Part shown: one piece after another, positions 21,543 to 63,321 of the stretch
Position numbering within the stretch: the first letter of the stretch is position 1
How the letters are laid out: each line of letters starts with the position of its first letter
Assembly: GCA_001794215.1 (NCBI GenBank)
Contig: MGJK01000015.1
Location: forward strand, 23,684 to 87,683
Length of the DNA stretch: 64,000 bases
Source of the DNA: Candidatus Yanofskybacteria bacterium RIFCSPHIGHO2_01_FULL_44_24
Lineage (GTDB): Bacteria; Patescibacteriota; Minisyncoccia; 2-02-FULL-40-12; GWA2-44-9
Direction of reading: 5' to 3'
Program-made: the position numbers and the translations under genes
The notes under the pieces: generated by a model
What the model was told of the DNA's origin: nothing
Database searches by the model: none
What the model saw: only the letters and a program-made list of their open reading frames with translations

Positions 21543-23339
21543 ATGGAAATAAGAAATATAGCAATAATCGCCCATGTAGACCATGGCAAAACTACTCTGA
21601 CTGACGCCCTGATGCGCCAGACCGGATTTGCCGTCGAAGGAGCCACTATGGACTCGAACACGCTCGAAAAAGAGCGTGGCATTACGATATACGCAAAGAA
21701 CGCCTCAATTGCCTATAAGGATACCAAAATTAACATAGTCGATACGCCTGGACATGCCGATTTCGGATCGGAAGTGGAACGGGTACTGCGATCAATCGAC
21801 TCGGTACTCTTAGTCGTTGACGCTCAAGAAGGACCGATGCCGCAAACACGCTTCGTCCTCAAGAAATCTCTTGAATTAGGATTAAAGCCGATTGTGGTCA
21901 TCAACAAAATAGACAAACCGGCTGCCGATCCGGTTAAATGCGAGGAACACGTTCTCGATCTCTTTTTAGAGCTTGGCGCCAAAGATGACCAGGCTGATTT
22001 CCCTATCGTTTACACAATAGGCAGGCTCGGAATCGCCAAGAAAAAACTTTCAGACGAGTCCTCTGATCTGACTCCTCTTTTGGACACGATTCTTGAGCAT
22101 GTTCCCTGCGCTTCATCGGATGAACTGATGGATAAAACGTTGATGCTTCAGTCGTTTAACTTAGGCTATGACAACTTTTTGGGCCGTTTGGCTGTGGGGA
22201 GAATTTATCAGGGTACGGTTACCTCCGGTCAAAATGTTTTCGTCAAAAAACCCAGCGGGGACACCCGCTCAGGGAAAATAACTAAAATATTCACCTTCAG
22301 CGGTCTTGAGAAAATAGATACGGATAAGGCCACTACCGGGGATATAGTAATGATAGCCGGGTTACCGGATATTTATATAGGCGAAACGGTAACCGATAAT
22401 GAGAAAGCTTCTCCCTTACCTGCCATTGCAGTGGATGAGCCGACCATTGCTCTTAATTTTTTGGTTAATAACTCCCCCTTCGCCGGCCGGGAAGGCAAAT
22501 TCGTAACTTCAAGACAAATCAGAGAGTATTTAGAGCGCGAGCTCGAAGTTAATGTAGGACTTCATATTGATTTTGCATCAATGGATACCTTTAGAGTGCT
22601 TGGACGCGGAGAACTCCATATCGCTATACTTTTAGAAAATATGAGGCGAGCCGGTTACGAACTTCAGGTTTCCCAGCCCCAGGTAATTATCCGCGAAGAT
22701 AACGGAATTAAAACGGAACCTTTTGAAGAAGTAATCGTGGATACGCCCAAAGAATATCAAGGCACTATAATCGAGCGATTAGGCATGCGAGGATTCATAA
22801 TGAATAATATGTCCGTCAGCGACGAATTAGTAAGGCTATCTTTTGAAGGTCCGACTCGCGGACTCTTGGGCTATAGAAACCAGTTTATTATAGATACCAA
22901 GGGTGAAGGAATTATGTCTTCGCGGGTTGTAGGCTTTAAACAATACGCCGGCGATATACGCAAAAAATCTGTAGGCTCCATGATCTCTATGGCTAACGGC
23001 AAAGCCCTTGGATTCGCTCTCTGGAATCTACAAGACAGAGGGATGCTCTATGTGGGTCCCGGCATTGAAGTATATGAAGGCATGGTTATAGGCAACACCT
23101 CAAAAGGAGAAGAGATGCATGTAAACCCCACCAAGGGCAAAAAATTGACCAATATGAGGGCTTCCGGAGCTGATGAGGCCATAGACCTCATTCCGCCGGT
23201 TCCCCTCACTATAGAGCGCGGACTTGAAGTGATGGCCGAAGATGAATACCTTGAAATAACTCCCCAAAGCGTAAGACTAAGAAAGCAGTACCTTACCGAA
23301 AATGACCGATCAAAAGCCCGAAGAGCACAAAACGAGTAG
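21543..23339 (+). CDS. typA: Translational GTPase TypA/BipA
   Basis: [29 protein letters not shown]; EF-G-like domain order. Confidence 0.95.
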
Positions 23340-23355
23340 AGCATACATATGCATA

Positions 23356-23391
23356 ATGAACAACCACGGCCGTAAGACCGTGGTTGTTCAT
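23356..23391. terminator. Bidirectional terminator; perfect 14-bp inverted repeat between convergent typA and dnaX
   Basis: atgaacaaccacgg-ccgtaaga-ccgtggttgttcat. Confidence 0.55.
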
Positions 23392-23402
23392 ATGACCTTA
23401 AA

Positions 23403-24584
23403 TCACTCTGTCAGCTCTATGATCGCCAACTCAAGAGGGAGCTGTGGAATCGGAGACGATTTTATGCCTTCCCGGGCAGAAATAAAAAGATTCAAAATGG
23501 ATGCTATTTTCTTTGGTTCAAGAGATGACGATAGGGCAGCTATAAATTTTACTTCTCCATCCAGCAGATTATCTCCTACGGACGCCAGAGTAGCCGGACT
23601 TACTCTATGCAAAAGGACTTTGCGCAGATAATTTATAAAATTACCGGCAAAGTTATCCAAGTCGATGCCTGATTCATGCATCTTGCTTATAAAATTTAAG
23701 GCCGCCGTCCGGTCATTATTGACAATATAACCAAGCAGTTCGGGATGGTAGCTGAAGGGTATCAGGCCCAGTAGTTCGCCGACATCTTCGGCTGTAACTT
23801 TTTTACCCCGGCTCACAGCTTGTATTTTGGAAAGGGCAACTTCCGGGTCCCGTAAAGCTCCGTCGGAAGAAACGGCAATAGAGACCAGGGCATCGTCGTT
23901 GATACTAATCTTTTCCGTCTTGGCAATTTCTCTTAACTTACCGAGAATTTGTTCGGACGAAAGCCTCTTAAAATCAAACCTCTGAACCCGGGAAAGAACA
24001 GTGAGAGGTATCTTGTGAGCTTCCGTCGTGGCTAAAATAAAAACAACATGCGCCGGCGGTTCTTCTAATATCTTCAGCAGAGCATTGAAAGCGGCCTGAG
24101 TAAGCATATGGACCTCGTCTATTATAAAAACCTTATAACCTCCGCTCGGAGCAGCGACTCCGGCCGAATCCTTAATGTTACGGATTTCATCAATGCCCCG
24201 ATTGGAAGCGGCATCTATTTCTATCAGGTCCAATGATCTATTGGTCGTAATGGCTGTGCATGAGTCACAAGTATTATCGGGATCTCCGTTTACGTCTCTT
24301 TTCTGACAGTTTAGAGCCTTAGCCATAAGACGGGCTATGGTTGTCTTGCCGGTCCCTCGAGGTCCGGTGAATAAGTAAGCGTGACCAGTCCGCCCGCTTA
24401 AAAGAGCCCCGCACAAAGTCTGGATAACATGTTCTTGCCCCACAACTTCAGAGAATTTTTGAGGACGATATTTACGATACAGCATGATGATTTTGTCTAT
24501 GAGGAGATCTGACCTTGCGACGAATAGCCACAAAATCATCACCCCGCCCTCTAAGCGCTTATTCTTAGCTTGAGAGCCCTCCAA
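23403..24584 (-). CDS. dnaX: DNA polymerase III subunit gamma/tau (short form); the true start is probably the internal MLYRKYRPQKF near 24485
   Basis: YRKYRPQ, GPRGTGKTT Walker A, DEVHML, SRVQRF sensor. Confidence 0.9.
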   Translation of the reverse strand: MEGSQAKNKRLEGGVMILWLFVARSDLLIDKIIMLYRKYRPQKFSEVVGQEHVIQTLCGALLSGRTGHAYLFTGPRGTGKTTIARLMAKALNCQKRDVNGDPDNTCDSCTAITTNRSLDLIEIDAASNRGIDEIRNIKDSAGVAAPSGGYKVFIIDEVHMLTQAAFNALLKILEEPPAHVVFILATTEAHKIPLTVLSRVQRFDFKRLSSEQILGKLREIAKTEKISINDDALVSIAVSSDGALRDPEVALSKIQAVSRGKKVTAEDVGELLGLIPFSYHPELLGYIVNNDRTAALNFISKMHESGIDLDNFAGNFINYLRKVLLHRVSPATLASVGDNLLDGEVKFIAALSSSLEPKKIASILNLFISAREGIKSSPIPQLPLELAIIELTE

Positions 24585-41260: not shown

Positions 41261-41396
41261 AATGCTTTAATGATACCAAAAACAGCTAAAAAAGCCATGA
41301 AATAGGCTTGTTGGAGTGTCTTGACAAATAGGTATAATGTATGCTATAATGTTAAGGTAGGGTAGACATTGGGCCCCAGGGCCCGGGAGAAGAACG

Positions 41397-41729
41397 ATGA
41401 ACCTTCGCAACAAGCTCGTAGTCGATCTTTCGTCGGCCGGATCGCCCAAGCTCGCCCGTCTGGAATACCCGAATGGCTGGGTCGGCGTTGAGACGATTCC
41501 GCAGGACATCCTCAAGGACTTTCGTCCGGCCGAGGCCGAGGCAGCCTACCGGGACGACTCTCGTCGAACCGACGAGAACCTCCGCTACGTCCAGTTCGGA
41601 CAGGCCTTCAAAGCCCCGAACGAACGCGGACAGGTGATCACCAAGACGGACAAGCGCGACGGGATGTGGATCCCGGCGTGGCTCCTGAAGGCCGCCGAGG
41701 AAGACAAGGCGGCTAAGAAGGCCGTCTAA
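41397..41729 (+). CDS. Hypothetical protein encoded in a GC-rich island
   Basis: 110 aa; RBS GGGAGAAG; upstream TTGACA-N18-TATAAT; downstream hairpin/terminator; about 60% GC. Confidence 0.45.
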   Translation: MNLRNKLVVDLSSAGSPKLARLEYPNGWVGVETIPQDILKDFRPAEAEAAYRDDSRRTDENLRYVQFGQAFKAPNERGQVITKTDKRDGMWIPAWLLKAAEEDKAAKKAV

Positions 41730-41745
41730 CACGCACCGCAACTAC

Positions 41746-41797
41746 CCGGTCCCGCTTCTTAACCGAAGCGGGACCGGCGAAAGCGGTGTCTTTTTGT
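41746..41797 (+). terminator. Intrinsic terminator-like hairpin
   Basis: ccggtcccgcttc-ttaacc-gaagcgggaccgg … TCTTTTTG. Confidence 0.45.
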
Positions 41798-41813
41798 TTA
41801 AACATCGAACGGA

Positions 41814-52289: not shown

Positions 52290-52850
52290 TTAACTGTTGA
52301 GGAGCTCCGCTTCTTTCTTTTTCGTAAGCTCGTCAAATTTTTTATTAAGATCGTCAACAATCTTTTGGATCTCCTCCTTGGCTCTATGCAGATCATCTTC
52401 GCGGGCAGTTTTAGCCCGGACTTCGGCCTGAACTTTTTTCAATACATCCTCCCTTACCTGCCTAACCTTTATTCTGGACTCTTCGACTTTCTGATGAAGA
52501 ATGCGAATAAATTCTTTGCGCCTCTCTTCTGTCAGCTGAGGCAGAGTAAGTCGAACGCCGTTTGAATCCGCAGAAGGGTTTAAACCGCTCGAACTTTCCC
52601 GTAAAGCTTTTTCAATCAAAGGTATGGCCTGCTTATCCCAAGGCTGAATAAGTATAACCCGAGGCTCAGGAGTAGTGATCGTAGCCAATTCCTTTATTTT
52701 CAATCGTGAGCCCATATATTCCACAGCCACATCCTCAACCATACTGGCGTTAGCCCGGCCGGTCCTGATGCCGGCAACTTCGCTTCGAGCATGCTCGAAA
52801 GCAGCGTTAAAATCCCCCTTCTTTTGATTAATTAAGTCTTTGTAAGTCAT
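52290..52850 (-). CDS. frr: Ribosome recycling factor
   Basis: Full-length RRF homology. Confidence 0.95.
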   Translation of the reverse strand: MTYKDLINQKKGDFNAAFEHARSEVAGIRTGRANASMVEDVAVEYMGSRLKIKELATITTPEPRVILIQPWDKQAIPLIEKALRESSSGLNPSADSNGVRLTLPQLTEERRKEFIRILHQKVEESRIKVRQVREDVLKKVQAEVRAKTAREDDLHRAKEEIQKIVDDLNKKFDELTKKKEAELLNS

Positions 52851-52876
52851 CTTTAAAATATACCACGAATTTTTTT

Positions 52877-53413
52877 AAAAAAAAGCTGGGGGGGGGTTAC
52901 CTCCAGCGTTGATTCGACCGCGGGAGGGATAGAGCTTCGCGCTCTCCCTCCCGCCCCGCGGCCACTGTCGTCTCTTTCTGTTTCTGCTCGCCCGATGATC
53001 GGCGGGTCGCCGCGCCGCTGTCCCGCGCCGCAGGCGACCCGCCCTTCTTTCTTTCTCCGATCTCCGATGGATCTTTTGTTAGAGCTTTGCCCCCGATCAG
53101 GCACTCAACCTGACCGGAGAACGGTCGTCGCTTGAGTGGCGACGGGAGGAAGCCTTGCGCACATCGGCGCTTGGCCCTTGCCTCCAGCTCTGCGATGGCC
53201 CCATCCGGGCACCACCCCTTAACCGCCCTCAACGCCCGGGGATCGCGGCCGCGTTCCGGACACCAAAGAATTAGAGATCACGGGCAGGTCCGCCTGCTTT
53301 TCGAGACAGGCGGACCTCGAGGTTGGCCATTTCGGCGTTACCCCACTGCCCCCGAAAAACCGCTTAAAAAGTAATCTTTCAGGGACAGTGTCAGCTCAAA
53401 GAACGTATATTAC
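52877..53413 (-). ncRNA. Candidate large structured ncRNA of about 535 nt (GC about 62%), bracketed by a consensus promoter and an intrinsic terminator; class unresolved (weak RNase P RNA-like words)
   Basis: Minus-strand TTGACA (53447-53442) -N16- TATAAT (53425-53420); terminator GCTGGAGG…CCAGC plus T8 at 52907-52877; no credible ORF; words GGGCAG..GGUAACGCC, GGAGGCAAGGGCCAAG and AAGGGGUGGUGCC resemble RNase P conserved regions, but the P4 strands were not found. Confidence 0.5.
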
Positions 53414-53419
53414 CCTCTC

Positions 53420-53447
53420 ATTATAGCAAATCTACAGAATCTGTCAA
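53420..53447 (-). promoter_or_regulatory. Consensus sigma70 promoter (TTGACA-N16-TATAAT) for the 535-nt RNA; the -35 is embedded in a perfect 11-bp inverted repeat (53436-53465)
   Basis: Direct reading: agaatctgtca-agccccg-ctgacagattct. Confidence 0.6.
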
Positions 53448-53506
53448 GCCCCGCTGACAGATTCTCAAAACGATGACACTCTACCGCGATCGTTATATTC
53501 TGTCAC

Positions 53507-54055
53507 TCATAGTTTAAACATTCTTCGAAGGTCTTTATCATATTCGATCTTATCAGTAGTAATCAGCCTCGTATAATGCTTCATCTGCTCTTCAAATAAA
53601 ATTTCTTTCAAAAAATTAGGCACTTTATAGGGATACGCCCAGATGCTCTTTTGAAATTCTTTAAACCCTATAACTTTCAGCATTAAACGTAGTTCGTCTC
53701 GGTATCTTCTCTTCTTTTCCGGTATATCAAAAAATATCATTCTCCACTTACCGTCCCAATTCGTATCTTGCGGAGAATTTTTATCGGTAGATAACCGAAA
53801 ATCTTTCAGTGCACAAAGAAAGGCCTCTTTTTCTCCTAAGGAAGTTAGGCGATAAATTTCTTTGTTCTTATACTGGGTTATAAATCCCCTCCTTCTCAGT
53901 CTGGAAATCGCAACATGATAAGAATTTCGTTTTTCATATCTATTGCCGTAACCGTATTTCTTGGCATATTTTGGATTAAAAAATGCGTTAACGGTTATCT
54001 CTCCGATCTCTCTAACTATCATCAGTATCATGGAACCGACAGATGATATTTGCAT
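53507..54055 (-). CDS. Hypothetical protein with an N-terminal winged-helix-like region (PaaX-like?)
   Basis: 182-aa ORF; HVAISRLRRRGFI helix; no firm family call. Confidence 0.35.
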   Translation of the reverse strand: MQISSVGSMILMIVREIGEITVNAFFNPKYAKKYGYGNRYEKRNSYHVAISRLRRRGFITQYKNKEIYRLTSLGEKEAFLCALKDFRLSTDKNSPQDTNWDGKWRMIFFDIPEKKRRYRDELRLMLKVIGFKEFQKSIWAYPYKVPNFLKEILFEEQMKHYTRLITTDKIEYDKDLRRMFKL

Positions 54056-54158
54056 GGTGACACCCTACCACGATCGTAGTATAATGCAAGCGAAGCATTT
54101 TAAAACCTTAAAGTCTCGGGTGGCCTAAGCTGGCTTGATGGTATTTTAAGAGTGGACT

Positions 54159-57128: not shown

Positions 57129-57455
57129 TTATCTTATCCCCGCACCTTCTTTAACTTCTGACTCGGGAATTATAAGAACCGGGCCGTCTTTGTCACTGGC
57201 CGCCAAAAGCATCCCGTTGCTTTCAAGACCCTTAAGGTTCCGGGGCTCCAAGTTTGCCACTACCACAATCTGTTTACCCACAAGAAGCTCGGGGGTATAA
57301 ATGGATCCTATACCAGCAACAATCTGCCTCTTCCCTAATTCTTCTCCTAAATCTATCTGCAGTTTGACTAACTTGTCAGAACCTTCGACCTTTTCAGCCT
57401 CGAGGATCTTGGCTACTCTTAGATCAATTTTTTTGAAATCGTCTATTGTAATCAT
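57129..57455 (-). CDS. csaA: tRNA-binding protein (CsaA/Trbp111 EMAP-like OB fold)
   Basis: DLRVAKI…; family-typical 108-aa size. Confidence 0.85.
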
Positions 57456-57493
57456 GACGTTATAATATGATAAATACTTATTTTTGAAAAGTA

Positions 57494-57515
57494 AAAGCCG
57501 AGATTAATCTCGGCT
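57494..57515 (-). terminator. Hairpin terminator after the small gene
   Basis: aagccgaga-ttaa-tctcggctt. Confidence 0.45.
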
Positions 57516-57542
57516 TGATACGATATGGTTTTAGTACGAATC

Positions 57543-57788
57543 TTAGTAATCCGCAGGCTGATCCACCTGCCAACCAGGCAGAAATGATCGGACAATATCG
57601 GGATTATACGGGCCAAACCCGTAAGATGTTCCAAAAATTCTCTTTCCCGCAAGATCAGCAATACCTCCTCCTCTTACCGAGGACAAGGGTATGCCATTCT
57701 GCTGAGCGACAGATGAATGAGAATCGTAGTTGTAGTCTATTGACCCGAATATAACTCTCTTATCCGTAACAACAAACTTGACGGTCAT
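57543..57788 (-). CDS. Hypothetical 81-aa Gly/Ser/Tyr-rich protein (standalone, with strong RBS and terminator)
   Basis: GGAGG-N5-ATG; hairpin downstream; no homology recognised. Confidence 0.45.
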   Translation of the reverse strand: MTVKFVVTDKRVIFGSIDYNYDSHSSVAQQNGIPLSSVRGGGIADLAGKRIFGTSYGFGPYNPDIVRSFLPGWQVDQPADY

Positions 57789-58009
57789 TGTTGCCTCCTT
57801 TTTATTAATGTAGCCCAGATAAGCAAAACCGGCCTATCTGGCCGGGGCGTTCTTAGAGTCTCAAAGATATTAGTCGTAACTAATGAAAACCAAAACCGCC
57901 ATGGCCAAAGAAGCCTGAAAAGAGCTCCTTTTTATAGCCATAGCTGTCACTGATTAAATTGTGATCTGGATTTAACATATTTTTATTAATGACGGATAAG
58001 AAAGCCGAG

Positions 58010-58166
58010 TCTATTCAAGCTCGGCCTTAACTTCCTGCCGTATTTTATCCTTCTCGGCGGTTCTTCGGTATTTTCCGCCTTTATCGGCAACATGGAATCC
58101 GCCCGTTTGACGGGGCAAAGGAATCCGTATTTTCTGATAGGCTTTCTTGACTCGTTTCTTCTTCAT
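58010..58166 (-). CDS. Small basic 51-aa protein (MKKKRVKKAYQKIR…)
   Basis: RBS GGAGAAAATC-ATG; flanked by hairpin gccgag-N10-ctcggc; not in the ORF track (below 60 aa). Confidence 0.3.
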
Positions 58167-58238
58167 GATTTTCTCCATTTCATTATATCATTTTTAAGGA
58201 GGGTAGTCCGACAAGTCGGACTACCCCATGTTTGAGGC

Positions 58239-58946
58239 CTACCCCTTTGCAAGCCCCATTTCTCTCACGATTTCCGGAAGCGGAATATCCGTCTCCTTGT
58301 GGAGCTGGACAGCCGCCATAAGATCCTTGAGAGAGATCGGCATCAAGGTGTTAATCACTACCGGATCGGTAATGCCTAAACCTAAGAGCAGAGCGGCGGA
58401 TGTCGATGGCCCGCCTATCAAGAACGGAGCCATCAGAGAGATGTAAAGCGGCGACCCGCCGACATCACTGGGAAGCGTGCCGAGAAAATCGGCCACCCTT
58501 TCGATGATTGCACCGCGACTCGTCTCATCGCCCATGATTACGGCATGGCACGCCGCTACCCTGACGATCAGTTCCATCTCTTCCCTTGAACCCTCGAAGA
58601 TTGTGGCATCCTTGCAGCCGAGAACTACCGTCTCGACAACAACCTTGGTTTCAGAGAGATCAGTTACGCTACCTCCGTAGCCAAGTTCGTAAACCACCAT
58701 GCTCTCAAGAGCCGCCATGAGCGGCCGCCGACAACCGCCGATGTCTCTCTTCATTCCTTGACCGTTGTCTCGCAAATTAGTTTGCCGGATCAACTTACTC
58801 ACCTCCTTTTTAAAGTTCCCTCTTTTAATGACCCGGGATCTGTCATCTACCGATTGAAAGCTCGGCAGAAAGCATGTTGTAGAACCCGCTCCGGAATTAC
58901 TGGAGCGGACCCCAATCGACCTCGACGCCAAGCTCCTTGGCGGCAA
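58239..58946 (-). CDS. Hypothetical protein (the true start is probably internal, about 58790 TTG or 58754 ATG); GC about 52%
   Basis: ORF track; AAGGAGG upstream of an internal start; no family recognised. Confidence 0.45.
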   Translation of the reverse strand: MPPRSLASRSIGVRSSNSGAGSTTCFLPSFQSVDDRSRVIKRGNFKKEVSKLIRQTNLRDNGQGMKRDIGGCRRPLMAALESMVVYELGYGGSVTDLSETKVVVETVVLGCKDATIFEGSREEMELIVRVAACHAVIMGDETSRGAIIERVADFLGTLPSDVGGSPLYISLMAPFLIGGPSTSAALLLGLGITDPVVINTLMPISLKDLMAAVQLHKETDIPLPEIVREMGLAKG

Positions 58947-59154
58947 GCTCAGTGAGTTCGCGCTTCTCCGCCTCGGAAAGCTGTTTGAGCTCCTCCGAGA
59001 AGTCTTTGAGCGCCTGCCCCGGCTTGTAGCCGAAGTAGTCGCGCAGAATTTTCATTGCTCCCGTTTTCTGGGCCATAGCGGCCTCCTGTTTCTGTTTTAA
59101 AAAGACAGTACTTTCCCGCCGATCAAAGGCCCGTCGGGTTGCCTGTTGTTTCAA
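58897..59154 (-). CDS. Hypothetical small protein (probable start MAQKTG at about 59076)
   Basis: ORF preceded by a 270-nt structured leader containing element copy A and X1. Confidence 0.35.
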   Translation of the reverse strand: MKQQATRRAFDRRESTVFLKQKQEAAMAQKTGAMKILRDYFGYKPGQALKDFSEELKQLSEAEKRELTELAAKELGVEVDWGPLQ

Positions 59155-59260
59155 AGAACAGGAGAGAAGCCTTAAAGTCCGGCTGTACAGTGGCCTTCAT
59201 CGTCACATACGGACGCCTCGCCTCATCGTACGTATTGCGCCGGTTTGCTTGTTTACTCCT

Positions 59261-59350
59261 CTCCCGCCAAAACCATCAGCTACCCTTCATGATATATCAT
59301 AAAGGGTATTGAAAACTTTGGTGGGAGTCCCGACCGACGCAAGGCCGGGA
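59261..59350. repeat. Double-hairpin element, copy A (CTCCCGCCAAAA…TTTTGGTGGGAG + TCCCGACC…GGCCGGGA)
   Basis: Direct reading; the inner segment carries a nested palindrome cccttcatgatatatcataaaggg. Confidence 0.7.
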
Positions 59351-59353
59351 CGT

Positions 59354-59407
59354 ACAGATTCTGTTGCCAGGCTCTGTAAGGCCCCGTCAGCCCAAAGCTG
59401 ACAGATT
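59354..59407. repeat. Conserved 54-nt element X1 (acagattctgttgccaggctctgtaaggccccgtcagcccaaagctgacagatt)
   Basis: Near-identical to X2 at 60800-60853; contains hairpin gtcagc-ccaaa-gctgac. Confidence 0.75.
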
Positions 59408-59423
59408 AACCGGGTCACAACGA

Positions 59424-59816
59424 TTAGAAGTGTCCGAGGTAGCCGTAGAAGTTGGCTACTTCGGCAAAGTACTCGTCAATACCGGGGATGCCATCCTCTT
59501 CAAGAGGCCGGCCTTCGGTATCAACGGTGCAACTCTCACCGACAGAATAACGGAAACGTTTTCCGGTTCCGTCGGTGCCGACGTAAAATTCGTGAGACGC
59601 GTTATGACCGACGCGCCAGAACTTAACGCCGTTGACGACGTGAGGCTTGTCAATCCACGGAGTATGCGGATTGTTGCCTTTGCCCCAATTGTACATGAGA
59701 TTCAACAGAAGAATCTCCTCCACAACAGGGTCGCCGTTAGAGTTTTCTGAAGCAACTTTTCTGAGTCGCTCCATAGCTCTTTCTTCTCGCTGTTCTTCCC
59801 GCTCTTCTTTTGTCAT
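59424..59816 (-). CDS. Hypothetical protein (130 aa; trimmed from the longer 233-aa ORF, which would span element copy B)
   Basis: ATG about 59816, 13 nt downstream of the element-B 3' arm GGTGGGAG; GC about 52%. Confidence 0.4.
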   Translation of the reverse strand: MTKEEREEQREERAMERLRKVASENSNGDPVVEEILLLNLMYNWGKGNNPHTPWIDKPHVVNGVKFWRVGHNASHEFYVGTDGTGKRFRYSVGESCTVDTEGRPLEEDGIPGIDEYFAEVANFYGYLGHF

Positions 59817-59828
59817 AGGACTGGGGAT

Positions 59829-59896
59829 TTCTCCCACCGAAGCCTCATAGACGCAGAAGTATGAGACTTCGGTGGGAGGCCGACATAAGTCGGCCG
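59829..59896. repeat. Double-hairpin element, copy B
   Basis: ctcccaccgaagcctcatagacgcagaagtatgagacttcggtgggag + ggccgacataagtcggcc. Confidence 0.75.
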
Positions 59897-60028
59897 GATT
59901 TTTACACTCAGGACGAGTAACCTGTTTTAGCAGAACAGGAACCGCAATCGGCGGGATGGATGTGAGTTGGAAGGACTCACGCTCCTTCTGTTGCCAGGCC
60001 GTCGCTCGGCCCCGCGTCGCAAGATAGA

Positions 60029-60340
60029 TCAGCCGGCAAGGCTGATCCGAAGACCCAGTAAGTCGCTCAAACGAGAAATTGCCTCGTCCGGCTTCCAACC
60101 GCAGTCCTCGAACACCAGGAAGCACGCCTCACGCAAATTGCGGGAAGTCCAGCGATATTTCACGCTGTTTCCAACAAGTTGCATGCGGCGGTCAGCCAGG
60201 GCTATCCTGCTTCTGCACGAATCACAGAACGGATTGCAAAGTCCGGCGACCTCGAACTTGACGGTTTTACCGTCAATGAGAATCCGCCGACCAGTCATCC
60301 ATCCTGCGACATGCACATACAGGCAAGTCTGCTCCATCAT
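60029..60340 (-). CDS. Hypothetical Cys-rich protein (104 aa from MMEQTC…; CNPFCDSC)
   Basis: RBS GGAGG-N4-ATG at 60340; the upstream part of the track ORF overlaps element C. Confidence 0.4.
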   Translation of the reverse strand: MMEQTCLYVHVAGWMTGRRILIDGKTVKFEVAGLCNPFCDSCRSRIALADRRMQLVGNSVKYRWTSRNLREACFLVFEDCGWKPDEAISRLSDLLGLRISLAG

Positions 60341-60442
60341 TTCACCTCCTCGATTCTGAAATTCCCCAGAATAACCAACCAGATGTGCCTTCGCACAAAA
60401 TGGCCAGTAAATTAAGGGTACATTTTTTTGAAAGAATGGGAT

Positions 60443-60513
60443 TTCTCCCACCGAAGCCTCATAGACGCAGAACTATGAGACTTCGGTGGGAGGCCGAGTC
60501 AGAGACTCAGCCG
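60443..60513. repeat. Double-hairpin element, copy C
   Basis: 49 of 50 identical to copy B over hairpin 1; hairpin 2 gccgagtc-agag-actcagc. Confidence 0.75.
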
Positions 60514-60592
60514 GTTGATTTGTTTACGCCGAAAACCATTCAGCGGATGCATTATCTGTTCCCGGGACTGCGATCACACCCCGGTGCAACCT

Positions 60593-60775
60593 TTATTTTG
60601 CACAGATAGGCAAAGTAGGGATACGAACGACCAATTCGCCATCAACCACGAAGCTGAAGAGTTCGCCGTTAATATTGACAGACCATTCATTTCCCAAAGA
60701 GCAGACACTGACTTCTACTCCGATTGCTGCCTTAAGAATCTCTTCGATAAGACTCTCTAATATATTTTTCTCCAT
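60593..60775 (-). CDS. Hypothetical 60-aa protein
   Basis: RBS GAGGAGAG; ATG at 60775, immediately downstream (on the minus strand) of X2. Confidence 0.4.
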   Translation of the reverse strand: MEKNILESLIEEILKAAIGVEVSVCSLGNEWSVNINGELFSFVVDGELVVRIPTLPICAK

Positions 60776-60799
60776 CTCTCCTCAAAGAACTCGGGACAT

Positions 60800-60853
60800 G
60801 CAGATTCTGTTGCCAGGCTCTGTAGGGCCCCGTCAGCCCAAAGCTGACAGATT
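60800..60853. repeat. Conserved 54-nt element X2
   Basis: 52 of 54 identical to X1. Confidence 0.75.
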
Positions 60854-60864
60854 GGGTCCAACTC

Positions 60865-61149
60865 CTATTTGAAGAAGTTGGCGAACCATCGCGGCTCGAG
60901 GATCACTACACCCTTTTCGGACATCGCCTCTTTCATGGCGAGAATTTCGTCCTTGAAGGCGCGCTTCACCTCATCGGCGTTCATTGATTCGACTTTGCGG
61001 TAGAATCCCTGAACGGCCACCGAGATGTTCAACGACTCCTGGGGTGTAACTCCAGGAGCGACCCATGAAAAGAGCGGTTTGCTCTTCATGAGAAGGTTGG
61101 GAGATGGTTCTACGCGAGCCACAGGGTTCCATGACACGTCCTGATACAT
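60865..61149 (-). CDS. Hypothetical protein (about 95 aa from MYQDVSW…)
   Basis: ORF track 60865..61182 uses a TTG inside element E; the ATG at about 61149 lies 23 nt after the element-E 3' arm. Confidence 0.4.
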   Translation of the reverse strand: MYQDVSWNPVARVEPSPNLLMKSKPLFSWVAPGVTPQESLNISVAVQGFYRKVESMNADEVKRAFKDEILAMKEAMSEKGVVILEPRWFANFFK

Positions 61150-61171
61150 AGATTTTGCGCTACTTCTCCGC

Positions 61172-61230
61172 TCTCCCACCAAAATCTCTTTAAAGAAACT
61201 TTGGTGGGAGGCCGAGTTTTACACTCGGCC
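61172..61230. repeat. Double-hairpin element, copy E
   Basis: ctcccaccaaaatctctttaaagaaactttggtgggag + ggccgagttttacactcggcc. Confidence 0.7.
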
Positions 61231-61374
61231 GTAGAGGTGGAAGTGAAAGACAGGGTCATAGCGAACAGCGAGCAACCGTCCGCTTCAGGCTTGTAACCCC
61301 TTCTGTCTTGCTCAAGGACAGCAGACTCACTACTCCGTCATGATCGACGGCGAGTCTGTTTTGCCGCCCTTCAC

Positions 61375-61464
61375 CCCCACCAAAACCTTGTATTCGCATG
61401 TGCGTATTTGTAACGCTATTCGCATACAAAACTTTGGTGGGGGTCCCGGCATAAGGCCGGGACT
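61375..61464. repeat. Double-hairpin element, copy D
   Basis: cccccaccaaaa…ttttggtggggg + tcccggcataaggccggga; the inner segment carries TATTCGCAYA words. Confidence 0.7.
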
Positions 61465-61471
61465 GGATGCG

Positions 61472-61861
61472 CTATAAGTAGCGCTTGAAGGCTTGGCGGG
61501 CGGCCTGCTGGCGCTGGACCCGACGCTGCTCCATCTCAACTACCGTCTGCTGGTAGCGATAGAAGCGGAGTCCGGCTTTGCGGCCGAGGGTCGCACAACG
61601 ACCACAGTGGATGTGGTCGGCCAGATCCTTGACCGAGGGCCAACGCCCGACGACCTTGCGGATGGTCGACAGGGCCGGCACCCAGGCCTCGGACTGAGCC
61701 ATCTTCGTCTGACACGGCTTGCCGGGTTTCGGCTCGCCATGACATCCGAAGGGCTTGTCCTGAGCCTTGTCGAGGGACTTCTCCGCCGCCGCTGTCACAA
61801 TCTGATCATTCATACACACCTCCAAAAATGAAAGAACTGCTGACCGAAAAACAATAATCAA
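61472..61861 (-). CDS. Hypothetical GC-rich (about 60%) zinc-ribbon-like protein
   Basis: C…C…HCGRC; Arg/Gln-rich C-terminus; composition foreign to the host. Confidence 0.4.
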   Translation of the reverse strand: MIIVFRSAVLSFLEVCMNDQIVTAAAEKSLDKAQDKPFGCHGEPKPGKPCQTKMAQSEAWVPALSTIRKVVGRWPSVKDLADHIHCGRCATLGRKAGLRFYRYQQTVVEMEQRRVQRQQAARQAFKRYL

Positions 61862-62267
61862 TGGAGCTCAAGGTATAAGCTTGTTGCCCCTTTCTGAAAC
61901 AATATGTGAAACATGCCTATTCGCACATATTGCCTCAGAAAGAGGCCGGAGCTTTGATTGTGGGGGCCGCGTTAATTATCTAGACGGCTGATACCACTAT
62001 ATGCTCAAAGCTCCACCGAGCTGAGCTCGGTCAATCCTCTAACTTTGTCTGGCCGGCAACTTTCGATGCCGATTTAACTTAACTGCCAGTATTATACTCA
62101 AATGAAATAATTTGTCAAGCCCCTCGGACAAAAAATAAAAAAATGTTCAAAGTAACGGCTTAAAGCCTTGCTTTTTTGAACATGGCAGGTGTCATGATAA
62201 CCAATAAAATAACCGTGATTGTTTTTTTACAAGAAAAAATAAACGCGATCATTTTTGTCACCCTTTC

Positions 62268-62296
62268 TTGACAAAAATTACGGTAAGGCGTATAAT
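62268..62296 (+). promoter_or_regulatory. Consensus sigma70 promoter TTGACA-N17-TATAAT
   Basis: Direct reading: 62268-62273 and 62291-62296. Confidence 0.6.
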
Positions 62297-62302
62297 AGAC
62301 AT

Positions 62303-62547
62303 GTAGCCTGAGGGCAGGCTACCCTCGACAAGAGGAACCAGCGGGAGAAACGCAGGCCTGTTCCCCGTCGACAGGAGATCGGATCTCAAGCGCGAAAAAG
62401 GGATAGGCCAAATGCCTCCTGCCAAAGGAGGTCCAACGTGGGCTCGAGATGAATTCAATTTTAAGAGCTCAAGAGAACTTTAGAAATTAGTGGTGAAGCG
62501 AGTCATGGGTTTCGGCCGTCCACCCTTTCAGGGGGATGGCCTTTTTG
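62303..62547 (+). ncRNA. Orphan structured sRNA candidate of about 245 nt (GC about 52%), between a consensus promoter and an intrinsic terminator
   Basis: Multiple hairpins (guagccug-aggg-caggcuac; gagauc-g-gaucuc; ccucc-ugccaaa-ggagg); terminator ggccgtccaccc…gggggatggcc plus T5; runs into the convergent TrmB gene, with no downstream + gene. Confidence 0.45.
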
Positions 62548-62562
62548 TTTCCCAAGAGAGAA

Positions 62563-63321
62563 TTATATCTTGCCGGAGATATTCCAAATCAAGTTGAGCA
62601 GGTTCCGGAAAGAATTTGCGATTTCTTGGTGCCTGATCATGGCACCGGAAATCTTTCCCTTCAAAGCCGCGATAGCGACAATATCATCATAGACGGTTAT
62701 GTCTACATTAAAAGGCATTTTATCCGGGGAAATATATCGAGCTTCCCGCAACATAGCGGGATCGCTTTCTTTAAATACCGGCCCCTTTGAAGATGTGTAT
62801 ATGGAGCGCGAATGAATACCCTTTTTAACCCTTTTGTCAGAATACGATTCCGAGTCTGGAGAATCAGGAAAAAGCTTAATCACATCATCAAGAGAAGTAA
62901 TACCTATGATTTTCTTTTCTTTGGCCTTTAGAAATTCCCGCTCCATCCTCATCAACCCCTCTTTTCCCTCGAAAAATCTTACTTCAGGCTTTTGATCGCC
63001 CAAACTGAAAACCGTCATAAGCTCGGGCATCAGTTTATTAAGGGTTTCTTTCTTGCCTTCCCAATCTCTCCTTTCCCGTTCAATAACAGACTCTAAGTAT
63101 TCAGGCGACTCAGCTACGAATAGCTGTTTCTTGCCTTTATTTTGAGTGCTTACTAAGCCGAGTTTTTTCAGAGATTCAACCTGGACATAAGCAGTAGGCC
63201 GGTTAATCCCGGCTTTGGCCGATATTTCAAGCATTGTGGCCGGACCAAGCTCAAGCATGGCCAAATACACCTTAGCTTCGTTGTCTGACAAACCGAGATT
63301 TTTTAGCTGGTTAACAAGCAT
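62563..63321 (-). CDS. TrmB-family transcriptional regulator
   Basis: N-terminal TrmB HTH (LGLSDNEAKVYLAMLELGPATMLEISAKAGINRPTAY) plus a C-terminal sugar-sensor-like domain. Confidence 0.8.
   Translation of the reverse strand: MLVNQLKNLGLSDNEAKVYLAMLELGPATMLEISAKAGINRPTAYVQVESLKKLGLVSTQNKGKKQLFVAESPEYLESVIERERRDWEGKKETLNKLMPELMTVFSLGDQKPEVRFFEGKEGLMRMEREFLKAKEKKIIGITSLDDVIKLFPDSPDSESYSDKRVKKGIHSRSIYTSSKGPVFKESDPAMLREARYISPDKMPFNVDITVYDDIVAIAALKGKISGAMIRHQEIANSFRNLLNLIWNISGKI

Follow-up and report, generated by a model that had tools for sequence, protein, structure and literature searches.

The closest described counterparts of the locus analyzed here are the type A RNase P RNAs (RF00010), the large RNAs OLE, GOLLD, ROOL, HEARO and raiA, mobile gene cassettes such as integron-like arrays and 'moron'-type units, and PaaX-family repressors with their palindromic operators. 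GOLLD and ROOL are frequently carried on mobile elements. The RNase P RNAs of the candidate phyla radiation (CPR) can evade standard search thresholds, and 10 of 35 circular genomes required a threshold of 5 bits (PMC8172020).

The stretch of DNA analyzed as a whole (64,000 nucleotides; hereafter, the window) originates from a groundwater population of Yanofskybacteria (Patescibacteria/CPR), and its GC content is mostly 37–50%. On the minus strand, murG, holB and a gene with a PaaX_M domain are followed by a GC-rich intergenic stretch, hereafter the element, and then by frr, a gene of the 23S_rRNA_IVP family and rseP. Identical copies of the frr and PaaX-like proteins occur in GCA_001794475.1, GCA_000994085.1 and many JGI, ENA and Logan assemblies, and the nearest frr loci among GTDB genomes belong to Yanofskybacteria and other Paceibacteria. 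The element is outside all catalogued RNA families, and no known family or system fits it. We tentatively read it, with a probability of about 0.4, as a discrete, abundant, trans-acting structured RNA that would constitute one module of a palindrome-controlled family of GC-rich promoter-cargo-terminator units.

Elsewhere in the window, the cumulative GC skew reaches its maximum at about 22800–23400, where genes on the plus strand to the left converge with genes on the minus strand to the right; dnaX lies at 23403–24584. The skew peak and the gene convergence form the pattern expected for a replication terminus.

The unit upstream of frr

A sequence-only reading of this region had proposed that a minus-strand consensus promoter and a strong intrinsic terminator bracket about 535 nt of DNA with 62% GC and no credible open reading frame. 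Most of this description holds. The promoter was recovered in a consensus scan with all 12 positions matched (Table 1), and it is one of five such promoters in the window, where about 0.02 would be expected by chance (128 kb). With transcription starting near 53413, as the promoter suggests, the predicted transcript would measure 537 nt (53413–52877) at 61.3% GC. The hairpin and T8 tract at the 3′ end are likewise present, but 'strong' overstates them: the stem consists of GCUGG (52907–52903) paired with CCAGC (52889–52885) plus two G-C pairs beyond a bulged A, and the consensus scan made no terminator call. With T8 at 52884–52877 and A7 next to it, the structure is plausible as an intrinsic terminator with a short stem.

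Table 1. Coordinates of the element, its neighbors and the related units in the window
Feature	Coordinates	Strand	Remarks
Second unit, ~830 nt non-coding (34045-34873), 53% GC	34045-34908	-	12/12 promoter in a TTGTC-N10-GACAA palindrome
Single-gene module, 110-aa orphan ORF 41397-41729, GC3 0.79	41321-41800	+	12/12 promoter, strong terminator
frr	52290-52850	-	
frr extended -10 (TGGTATATT)	52857..52865	-	6 nt before the ATG at 52850; from sequence, function inferred
Intrinsic-terminator-like hairpin (5 + 2 pairs), then U8, then A7	52877..52907	-	sequence and fold
Predicted transcript, ~537 nt, 61% GC (G 34%), non-coding	52877..53413	-	start inferred
3′ compound hairpin (14 + 5 pairs, GCGAA loop)	52916..52963	-	predicted fold
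Central multi-branch domain enclosing four local helices	52990..53285	-	single-sequence prediction only
17-bp G+C hairpin, nearly perfect	53001..53043	-	predicted fold
Long-range helices closing the central domain	53276-53285 with 52990-53000; 53257-53269 with 53054-53066	-	predicted
12-bp hairpin, loop CUCGAAAA	53286..53317	-	predicted fold
5′ hairpin, 19 pairs (5 G-U by hand pairing)	53345..53389	-	predicted fold; mean pair probability 0.98
Sigma-70 promoter TTGACA-N16-TGcTATAAT	53420..53447	-	12/12, TG ahead of -10
Inverted repeat AGAATCTGTCA-N8-TGACAGATTCT	53436..53465		arms 53455-53465 and 53436-53446; candidate operator
ACGATCG-centred site	53470..53505		downstream of the PaaX-like gene; direct repeat of upstream site 54060-54090
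PaaX_M (Cas2-like domain) family regulator gene	53507-54055	-	inserted with the element between holB and frr
Small GC-rich orphan ORF array	57400-62100	-	codon periodicity clear in all seven cassette genes
~250-nt non-coding GC-rich unit 62303-62552	62268-62552	+	terminator, z -4.3, no Rfam match
TrmB-family regulator gene	62563-63321		adjoins the divergent promoter pair

Coding tests agree with the absence of a credible reading frame. Stop codons interrupt six of six frames, GC1, GC2 and GC3 are flat, and a Pfam search of the overlapping ORFs returned no family. Period-3 power is 1.1 in the element, against 4–25 in seven GC-rich cassette genes and about 12 in frr and holB. The longest stop-free stretch spans 126 codons (53274–52897), and its translation has no homolog among 5.8 billion protein clusters. 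Taken with the predicted fold, these features support the interpretation of the element as non-coding and strongly self-complementary, a unit that lies between a consensus promoter and a terminator.

Folded as the minus-strand RNA, the element has a minimum free energy of −270.3 kcal/mol, with z scores of −5.9 (tool shuffles) and −8.0 (our own dinucleotide shuffles), whereas its complement reaches −236.4 kcal/mol, so that the transcribed strand folds better by 34 kcal/mol; the native genes frr, the PaaX-like gene and holB have folding z scores near 0. Helices of high probability in this single-sequence prediction comprise the 19-pair, 12-bp, 17-bp and 14 + 5-pair hairpins, the two long-range helices and the terminator. 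On a sliding 240-nt window map, the element is among the few structure-rich patches of the 24–64 kb region, and z falls to −3 or below in the element, in the 34-kb unit and, without exception, in all windows between 57.4 and 61.9 kb. For the cassettes at 58–62 kb, which are GC-rich and code for proteins, z scores range from −2 to −8.5. Because these coding cassettes are equally negative, high self-complementarity is a general property of the GC-rich islands and not a marker of functional RNA. The long, near-perfect G+C hairpins of the element resemble terminators or palindromic spacer elements more closely than the core of a typical functional RNA. In a separate observation, positions 53013–52994, the 3′ arm of the 17-bp hairpin, are complementary at 19 of 20 positions to the mRNA of a 184-aa cassette protein (58448–58466), a match with a blastn E-value of 0.11 in one search that alone is not significant.

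Immediately downstream, frr carries its own extended −10 element, and equivalent elements lie 4–9 nt ahead of the frr ATG in relatives, often right after a terminator. From this arrangement, the frr mRNA would be leaderless and transcribed from its own promoter. Given an extended −10 that belongs to frr itself, the element counts as an independent transcription unit rather than as the frr leader; in addition, the relatives lack the element.

Searches with blastn and nhmmer against 73 frr loci from genomes and 40 PaaX-like loci from metagenomes recovered no homolog of the element. The same programs found no match in the loci of three sister species (frr identities of 88%, 84% and 76%), in the rest of the window or in c171-homolog loci. 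Among phages and plasmids, blastn gave only a 39-nt chance match to Streptomyces; word scans of IMG/VR gave one 22-nt chance match and no instance of the promoter-palindrome pattern described below. These homolog searches were based on synteny or words and were not exhaustive. Rfam models applied to five related loci found nothing real. The copies of the element that were found all belong to the same species and carry no informative differences, and no homolog with compensatory base changes was found. The lack of homologs in these searches leaves neither covariation nor a sign of selection on the element RNA.

In relatives, holB directly adjoins frr, or other and unrelated cargo lies between them, such as orphan genes of 138 or 180 aa, a gene for a membrane protein, or a hairpin of 190 nt. 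It follows that the PaaX-like gene and the element are a species-specific insertion, and on these comparisons insertions recur in this clade just ahead of frr, a hot spot whose cargo differs by species. When the holB–frr interval is compared across five loci (L009, L012, L017, L134 and L137), the cargo is different in each species. L134 and L137 have in common a small hairpin (GAUUUnCGCAGGAAnAAAUC) upstream of frr, and the L009 contig breaks off 373 nt ahead of frr, in sequence that is GC-rich.

The element is present in about ten independent assemblies of this species. Where their length allows a comparison, they agree with the window except at the 17-bp G+C hairpin, where the sequence is gapped or of low quality. 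Assembly fails there (53001–53043) as an N gap in L001, as contig ends in L003, L004, L006, L125, L126 and L128, and as poly-C/poly-A junk in L124. The only strain differences are poly-G, poly-C or poly-A sequencing artefacts beyond this hairpin. At the end of one GCA_000994085.1 contig (L002, 1–1382), a truncated ftsA is joined in frame at 53063 to the 3′ 190 nt of the element, and the 356-aa 'FtsA' called there ends in ...PPQLFFKKIRGIF, which is read from the terminator T8A7. We rejected this fusion as a real gene: ftsA is cut at about residue 285, the join is located where the contig ends, within a purine-rich word, and the whole element is covered by a different assembly. The junction is probably an assembly chimera that has given rise to a false protein record.

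Searches for known RNA families

Earlier suggestions for the element included RNase P RNA, tmRNA, OLE, GOLLD, ROOL and HEARO, and none of these has an Rfam 15 match at E ≤ 10. At gathering thresholds, Rfam 15 identified only tRNA-Gln in the whole window. At E ≤ 10 across 52600–53800, the sole listing was a 15.3-bit PyrR210 snoRNA, which we regard as noise given a gathering score of 59. The scan of a sister unit indicates how deep such listings reach, as it returned a 5.7-bit tmRNA 'match' (E = 6) and matches of 10–14 bits for other long models; a weak RNase P or tmRNA alignment in the element would therefore have appeared. ARAGORN found only tRNA-Gln at 585–657 and no tmRNA in the window.

The sequence-only reading had itself remarked on RNase P-like words, on missing P4 strands and on the lack of a tRNA-like 3′ end of the tmRNA kind. 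The words are indeed in the element, but the RNase P covariance models give them no score. The P4 strands are absent as described, with neither CR-I GAGGAAAGUCCGGGC nor CR-V ACAGAANCCGGCUUA found in 52877–53465 at up to three mismatches. By eye there is no tRNA-like 3′ end, and ARAGORN is negative on the element.

Sister modules and a shared palindrome

The −35 hexamer of the element promoter lies within the perfect 11-bp inverted repeat noted earlier, whose spacer we count as 8 nt instead of 7. Its right arm covers the TGACA of the −35, and the repeat includes the pattern TGTC-N10-GACA at 53442–53459. This pattern occurs 4 times in the 64 kb against 0.45 expected, and none of 100 shuffles reached 4 copies. 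All 4 copies overlap the −35 of a 12/12 promoter, and the fifth such promoter has a copy with one mismatch; the five promoters lie at 34908(−), 41321(+), 53447(−), 62118(−) and 62268(+). A palindrome on all five perfect promoters makes the putative operator a regulon-type feature. An operator on the −35 of the element is plausible, as a candidate common to five promoters and not peculiar to one, and its simplest reading is as the site of a dimeric repressor. Kinship of the repeat with the 62-nt 'X' elements of the nearby array (59346–59407 and 60792–60853) had also been proposed. Common words exist, but the alignment similarity is not significant (gapped local score 31, against 27.7 ± 2.5 for shuffled queries).

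The cargo of all five palindrome promoters is GC-rich, hyper-structured and orphan, non-coding in three units and coding in two. The unit at 34045–34908 lies between a PMT-family glycosyltransferase gene and murB, ends in the terminator GCUGCCCGUGGUAACCCCACGGGCGUUUU, has a z score of −7.1, and shows neither codon periodicity nor an Rfam match. The module at 41321–41800 has no family match and no IMG/VR relative. The promoters at 62118(−) and 62268(+) form a divergent palindrome-embedded pair 150 nt apart, the former leading through a structured leader of about 270 nt into the small-ORF array. Within the array, ORFs are divided by 19–27-bp hairpin repeats, of which there are five copies spaced 233–718 nt apart, and the two 'X' elements are also found here. 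The bodies of the three non-coding units have no mutual similarity. Paralogy of the element with the 830-nt unit was considered and rejected, as only the promoter consensus aligns and the similarity of the bodies is within the null.

Proteins of the islands and cassettes matched no families in Pfam, PHROGs or PADLOC, and the AlphaFold model of the 184-aa cassette protein (pLDDT 90) found no fold match in a Foldseek search of the PDB. Homologs of this protein, 51–66% identical, occur at non-syntenic sites on other CPR contigs, where the gene again stands alone, is GC-rich (59% GC within a contig of 42%) and has a promoter and a terminator of its own. One segment of 681 bp, which contains a −10 element, a 5′ UTR, a homolog of the 184-aa gene and a terminator, is 100% identical in L130 (9929–10609, where it adjoins a tRNA gene) and L132 (140–820), and its flanks differ on both sides. 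The identity of this segment in two contexts suggests that the mini-module is mobile or multi-copy. The window proteins scanned included no integrase, transposase or reverse transcriptase.

The PaaX-like gene is associated with a different palindrome. It is flanked by two direct copies of a site of about 26 bp centered on ACGATCG, which are identical at 22 of 26 positions. Most of the PaaX-like homologs examined (L083–L100) have a long palindrome on ACGATCGT or a near variant, located right before the next gene (dusA- or tsaD-like) and over its −10 region. The ACGATCG-centered palindrome is probably the operator of the PaaX-like family. The inverted repeat on the −35 of the element differs from this separate site and does not have the sequence of a PaaX-type operator.

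Interpretation and comparison with known systems

In the reading that we prefer, RNA polymerase would start near 53413 and halt at the hairpin and U8 tract, a dimeric DNA-binding protein on the palindrome would repress all five units jointly, and the RNA of the element would work in trans as a stable structured molecule. The module that carries the element would be lineage-specific and possibly horizontally mobile. That the element is a functional RNA is weakly suggested, from a single sequence. The main rival is passenger or spacer DNA: a transcribed but functionless fragment of the island family, recently acquired or decaying (a spacer, a junction or an emptied cassette), that happens to lie behind a strong module promoter. 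Restriction of the element to one species, with no homolog, accords with such an origin, as do its location in a hot spot where each relative has other cargo, its long perfect hairpins, which resemble those between the cassette ORFs, and the self-complementarity that extends to the coding parts of the islands. We nevertheless judge this origin somewhat unlikely, for a 12/12 promoter with TG and a terminator right before the frr promoter would hardly last around junk, the element has no sequence similarity to the hairpin families of the array, and the transcribed strand has the 34 kcal/mol folding advantage over its complement. Decay could instead have begun from a protein-coding cassette, leaving a pseudogene of a GC-rich orphan gene of the kind found in the 58–62 kb array. 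The GC-rich orphan ORFs of the sister modules and the 126-codon open stretch would fit, but by our own estimate 126 open codons are ordinary at such GC content; the translation of that stretch found no homolog, nor did the element yield a Pfam match, and codon periodicity, clear in seven of seven cassette genes, is absent from the element (1.1, with flat GC1/2/3). A pseudogene is thus very unlikely.

Two further identities would tie the element to familiar functions. As a cis-acting leader or attenuator, it would control frr through regulated read-through of the terminator, whose end lies on the same strand 27 nt ahead of the frr ATG. This we consider highly improbable, given an frr −10 six nt before the ATG whose position is conserved in relatives without the element, the lack of any such leader in those relatives, and a size (535 nt) and consensus promoter that would be unusual for a leader. 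For an RNase P RNA or tmRNA that has diverged strongly in a reduced genome, one could cite the short M1-like words in matching order and the known evasiveness of CPR RNase P RNAs (PMC8172020), but no such model appears at E ≤ 10 in listings that reach about 5–14 bits for long models, the P4 strands and a tRNA-like 3′ end are missing, ARAGORN is negative, and the locus is a species-specific insertion. Taken together, these results largely refute an RNase P or tmRNA identity, to which we now give next to no credence.

Extending the preferred reading of a structured trans-acting RNA to the other units leads to a more speculative and rather doubtful proposal, in which three unrelated large structured RNAs (~535, ~830 and ~250 nt) and the orphan small-protein cassettes would form a co-regulated mobile accessory regulon of a CPR episymbiont, marked by the palindrome-embedded promoter and by a genome-scale RNA self-complementarity common to its transcripts. 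If true, it would amount to novel classes of RNA and to a system of mobile mini-transcription units of a new kind. The element by itself, if real and functional, would add a large structured RNA class to the candidate phyla radiation, in which RNA biology has hardly been explored; would tie an RNA to a set of orphan units that are GC-rich, hyper-structured and strongly promoted and that may pass from one genome to another; and would offer, in the shared promoter-palindrome, a handle on how reduced symbionts gain accessory functions and keep them under control. Without a function, it becomes a cautionary case: because neighboring coding cassettes score alike, a promoter, a terminator, high GC and a very negative z are insufficient to establish a functional RNA.

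Compared with type A RNase P RNA, the element is also GC-rich and structured, and its words GGGCAG..GGUAACGCC, UUAAGGGGUGGUGCC and GGAGGCAAGGGCCAAG resemble segments of M1 RNA with their 5′–3′ order kept. Unlike that RNA, it has no model match and no P4 strands, is 535 nt long, ends in a terminator hairpin, and has a P1-like pairing of its 5′ and 3′ ends that is weak and interrupted (hand pairing). With OLE, GOLLD, ROOL, HEARO and raiA it shares a length of several hundred nucleotides, a GC content far above that of the host genome, an intergenic location without coding potential and a complex multi-branch predicted fold, and it sits within an insertion, much as GOLLD and ROOL are often carried on mobile elements. 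It departs from them in having no covariance-model match (E ≤ 10), in lacking homologs and hence a definable core, and in the exceptional length and perfection of its helices.

The PaaX_M-domain gene directly upstream, flanked by ACGATCG-centered sites, recalls a PaaX-family repressor and its palindromic operator, but the −35 repeat of the element is of the TGTC-N10-GACA type, and the ACGATCG site lies 25–60 bp further upstream. Mobile gene cassettes differ from the element in two respects, since its cargo is non-coding and no integrase, transposase or reverse transcriptase is among the window proteins scanned. In other respects the likeness to such cassettes is broad: the element is self-contained, with its own promoter and terminator, lies between housekeeping genes at a hot spot and has a foreign-like composition; the palindrome at its 5′ boundary has words of the junction ('X') elements of the nearby array; and a sister module recurs with 100% identity in a second context.
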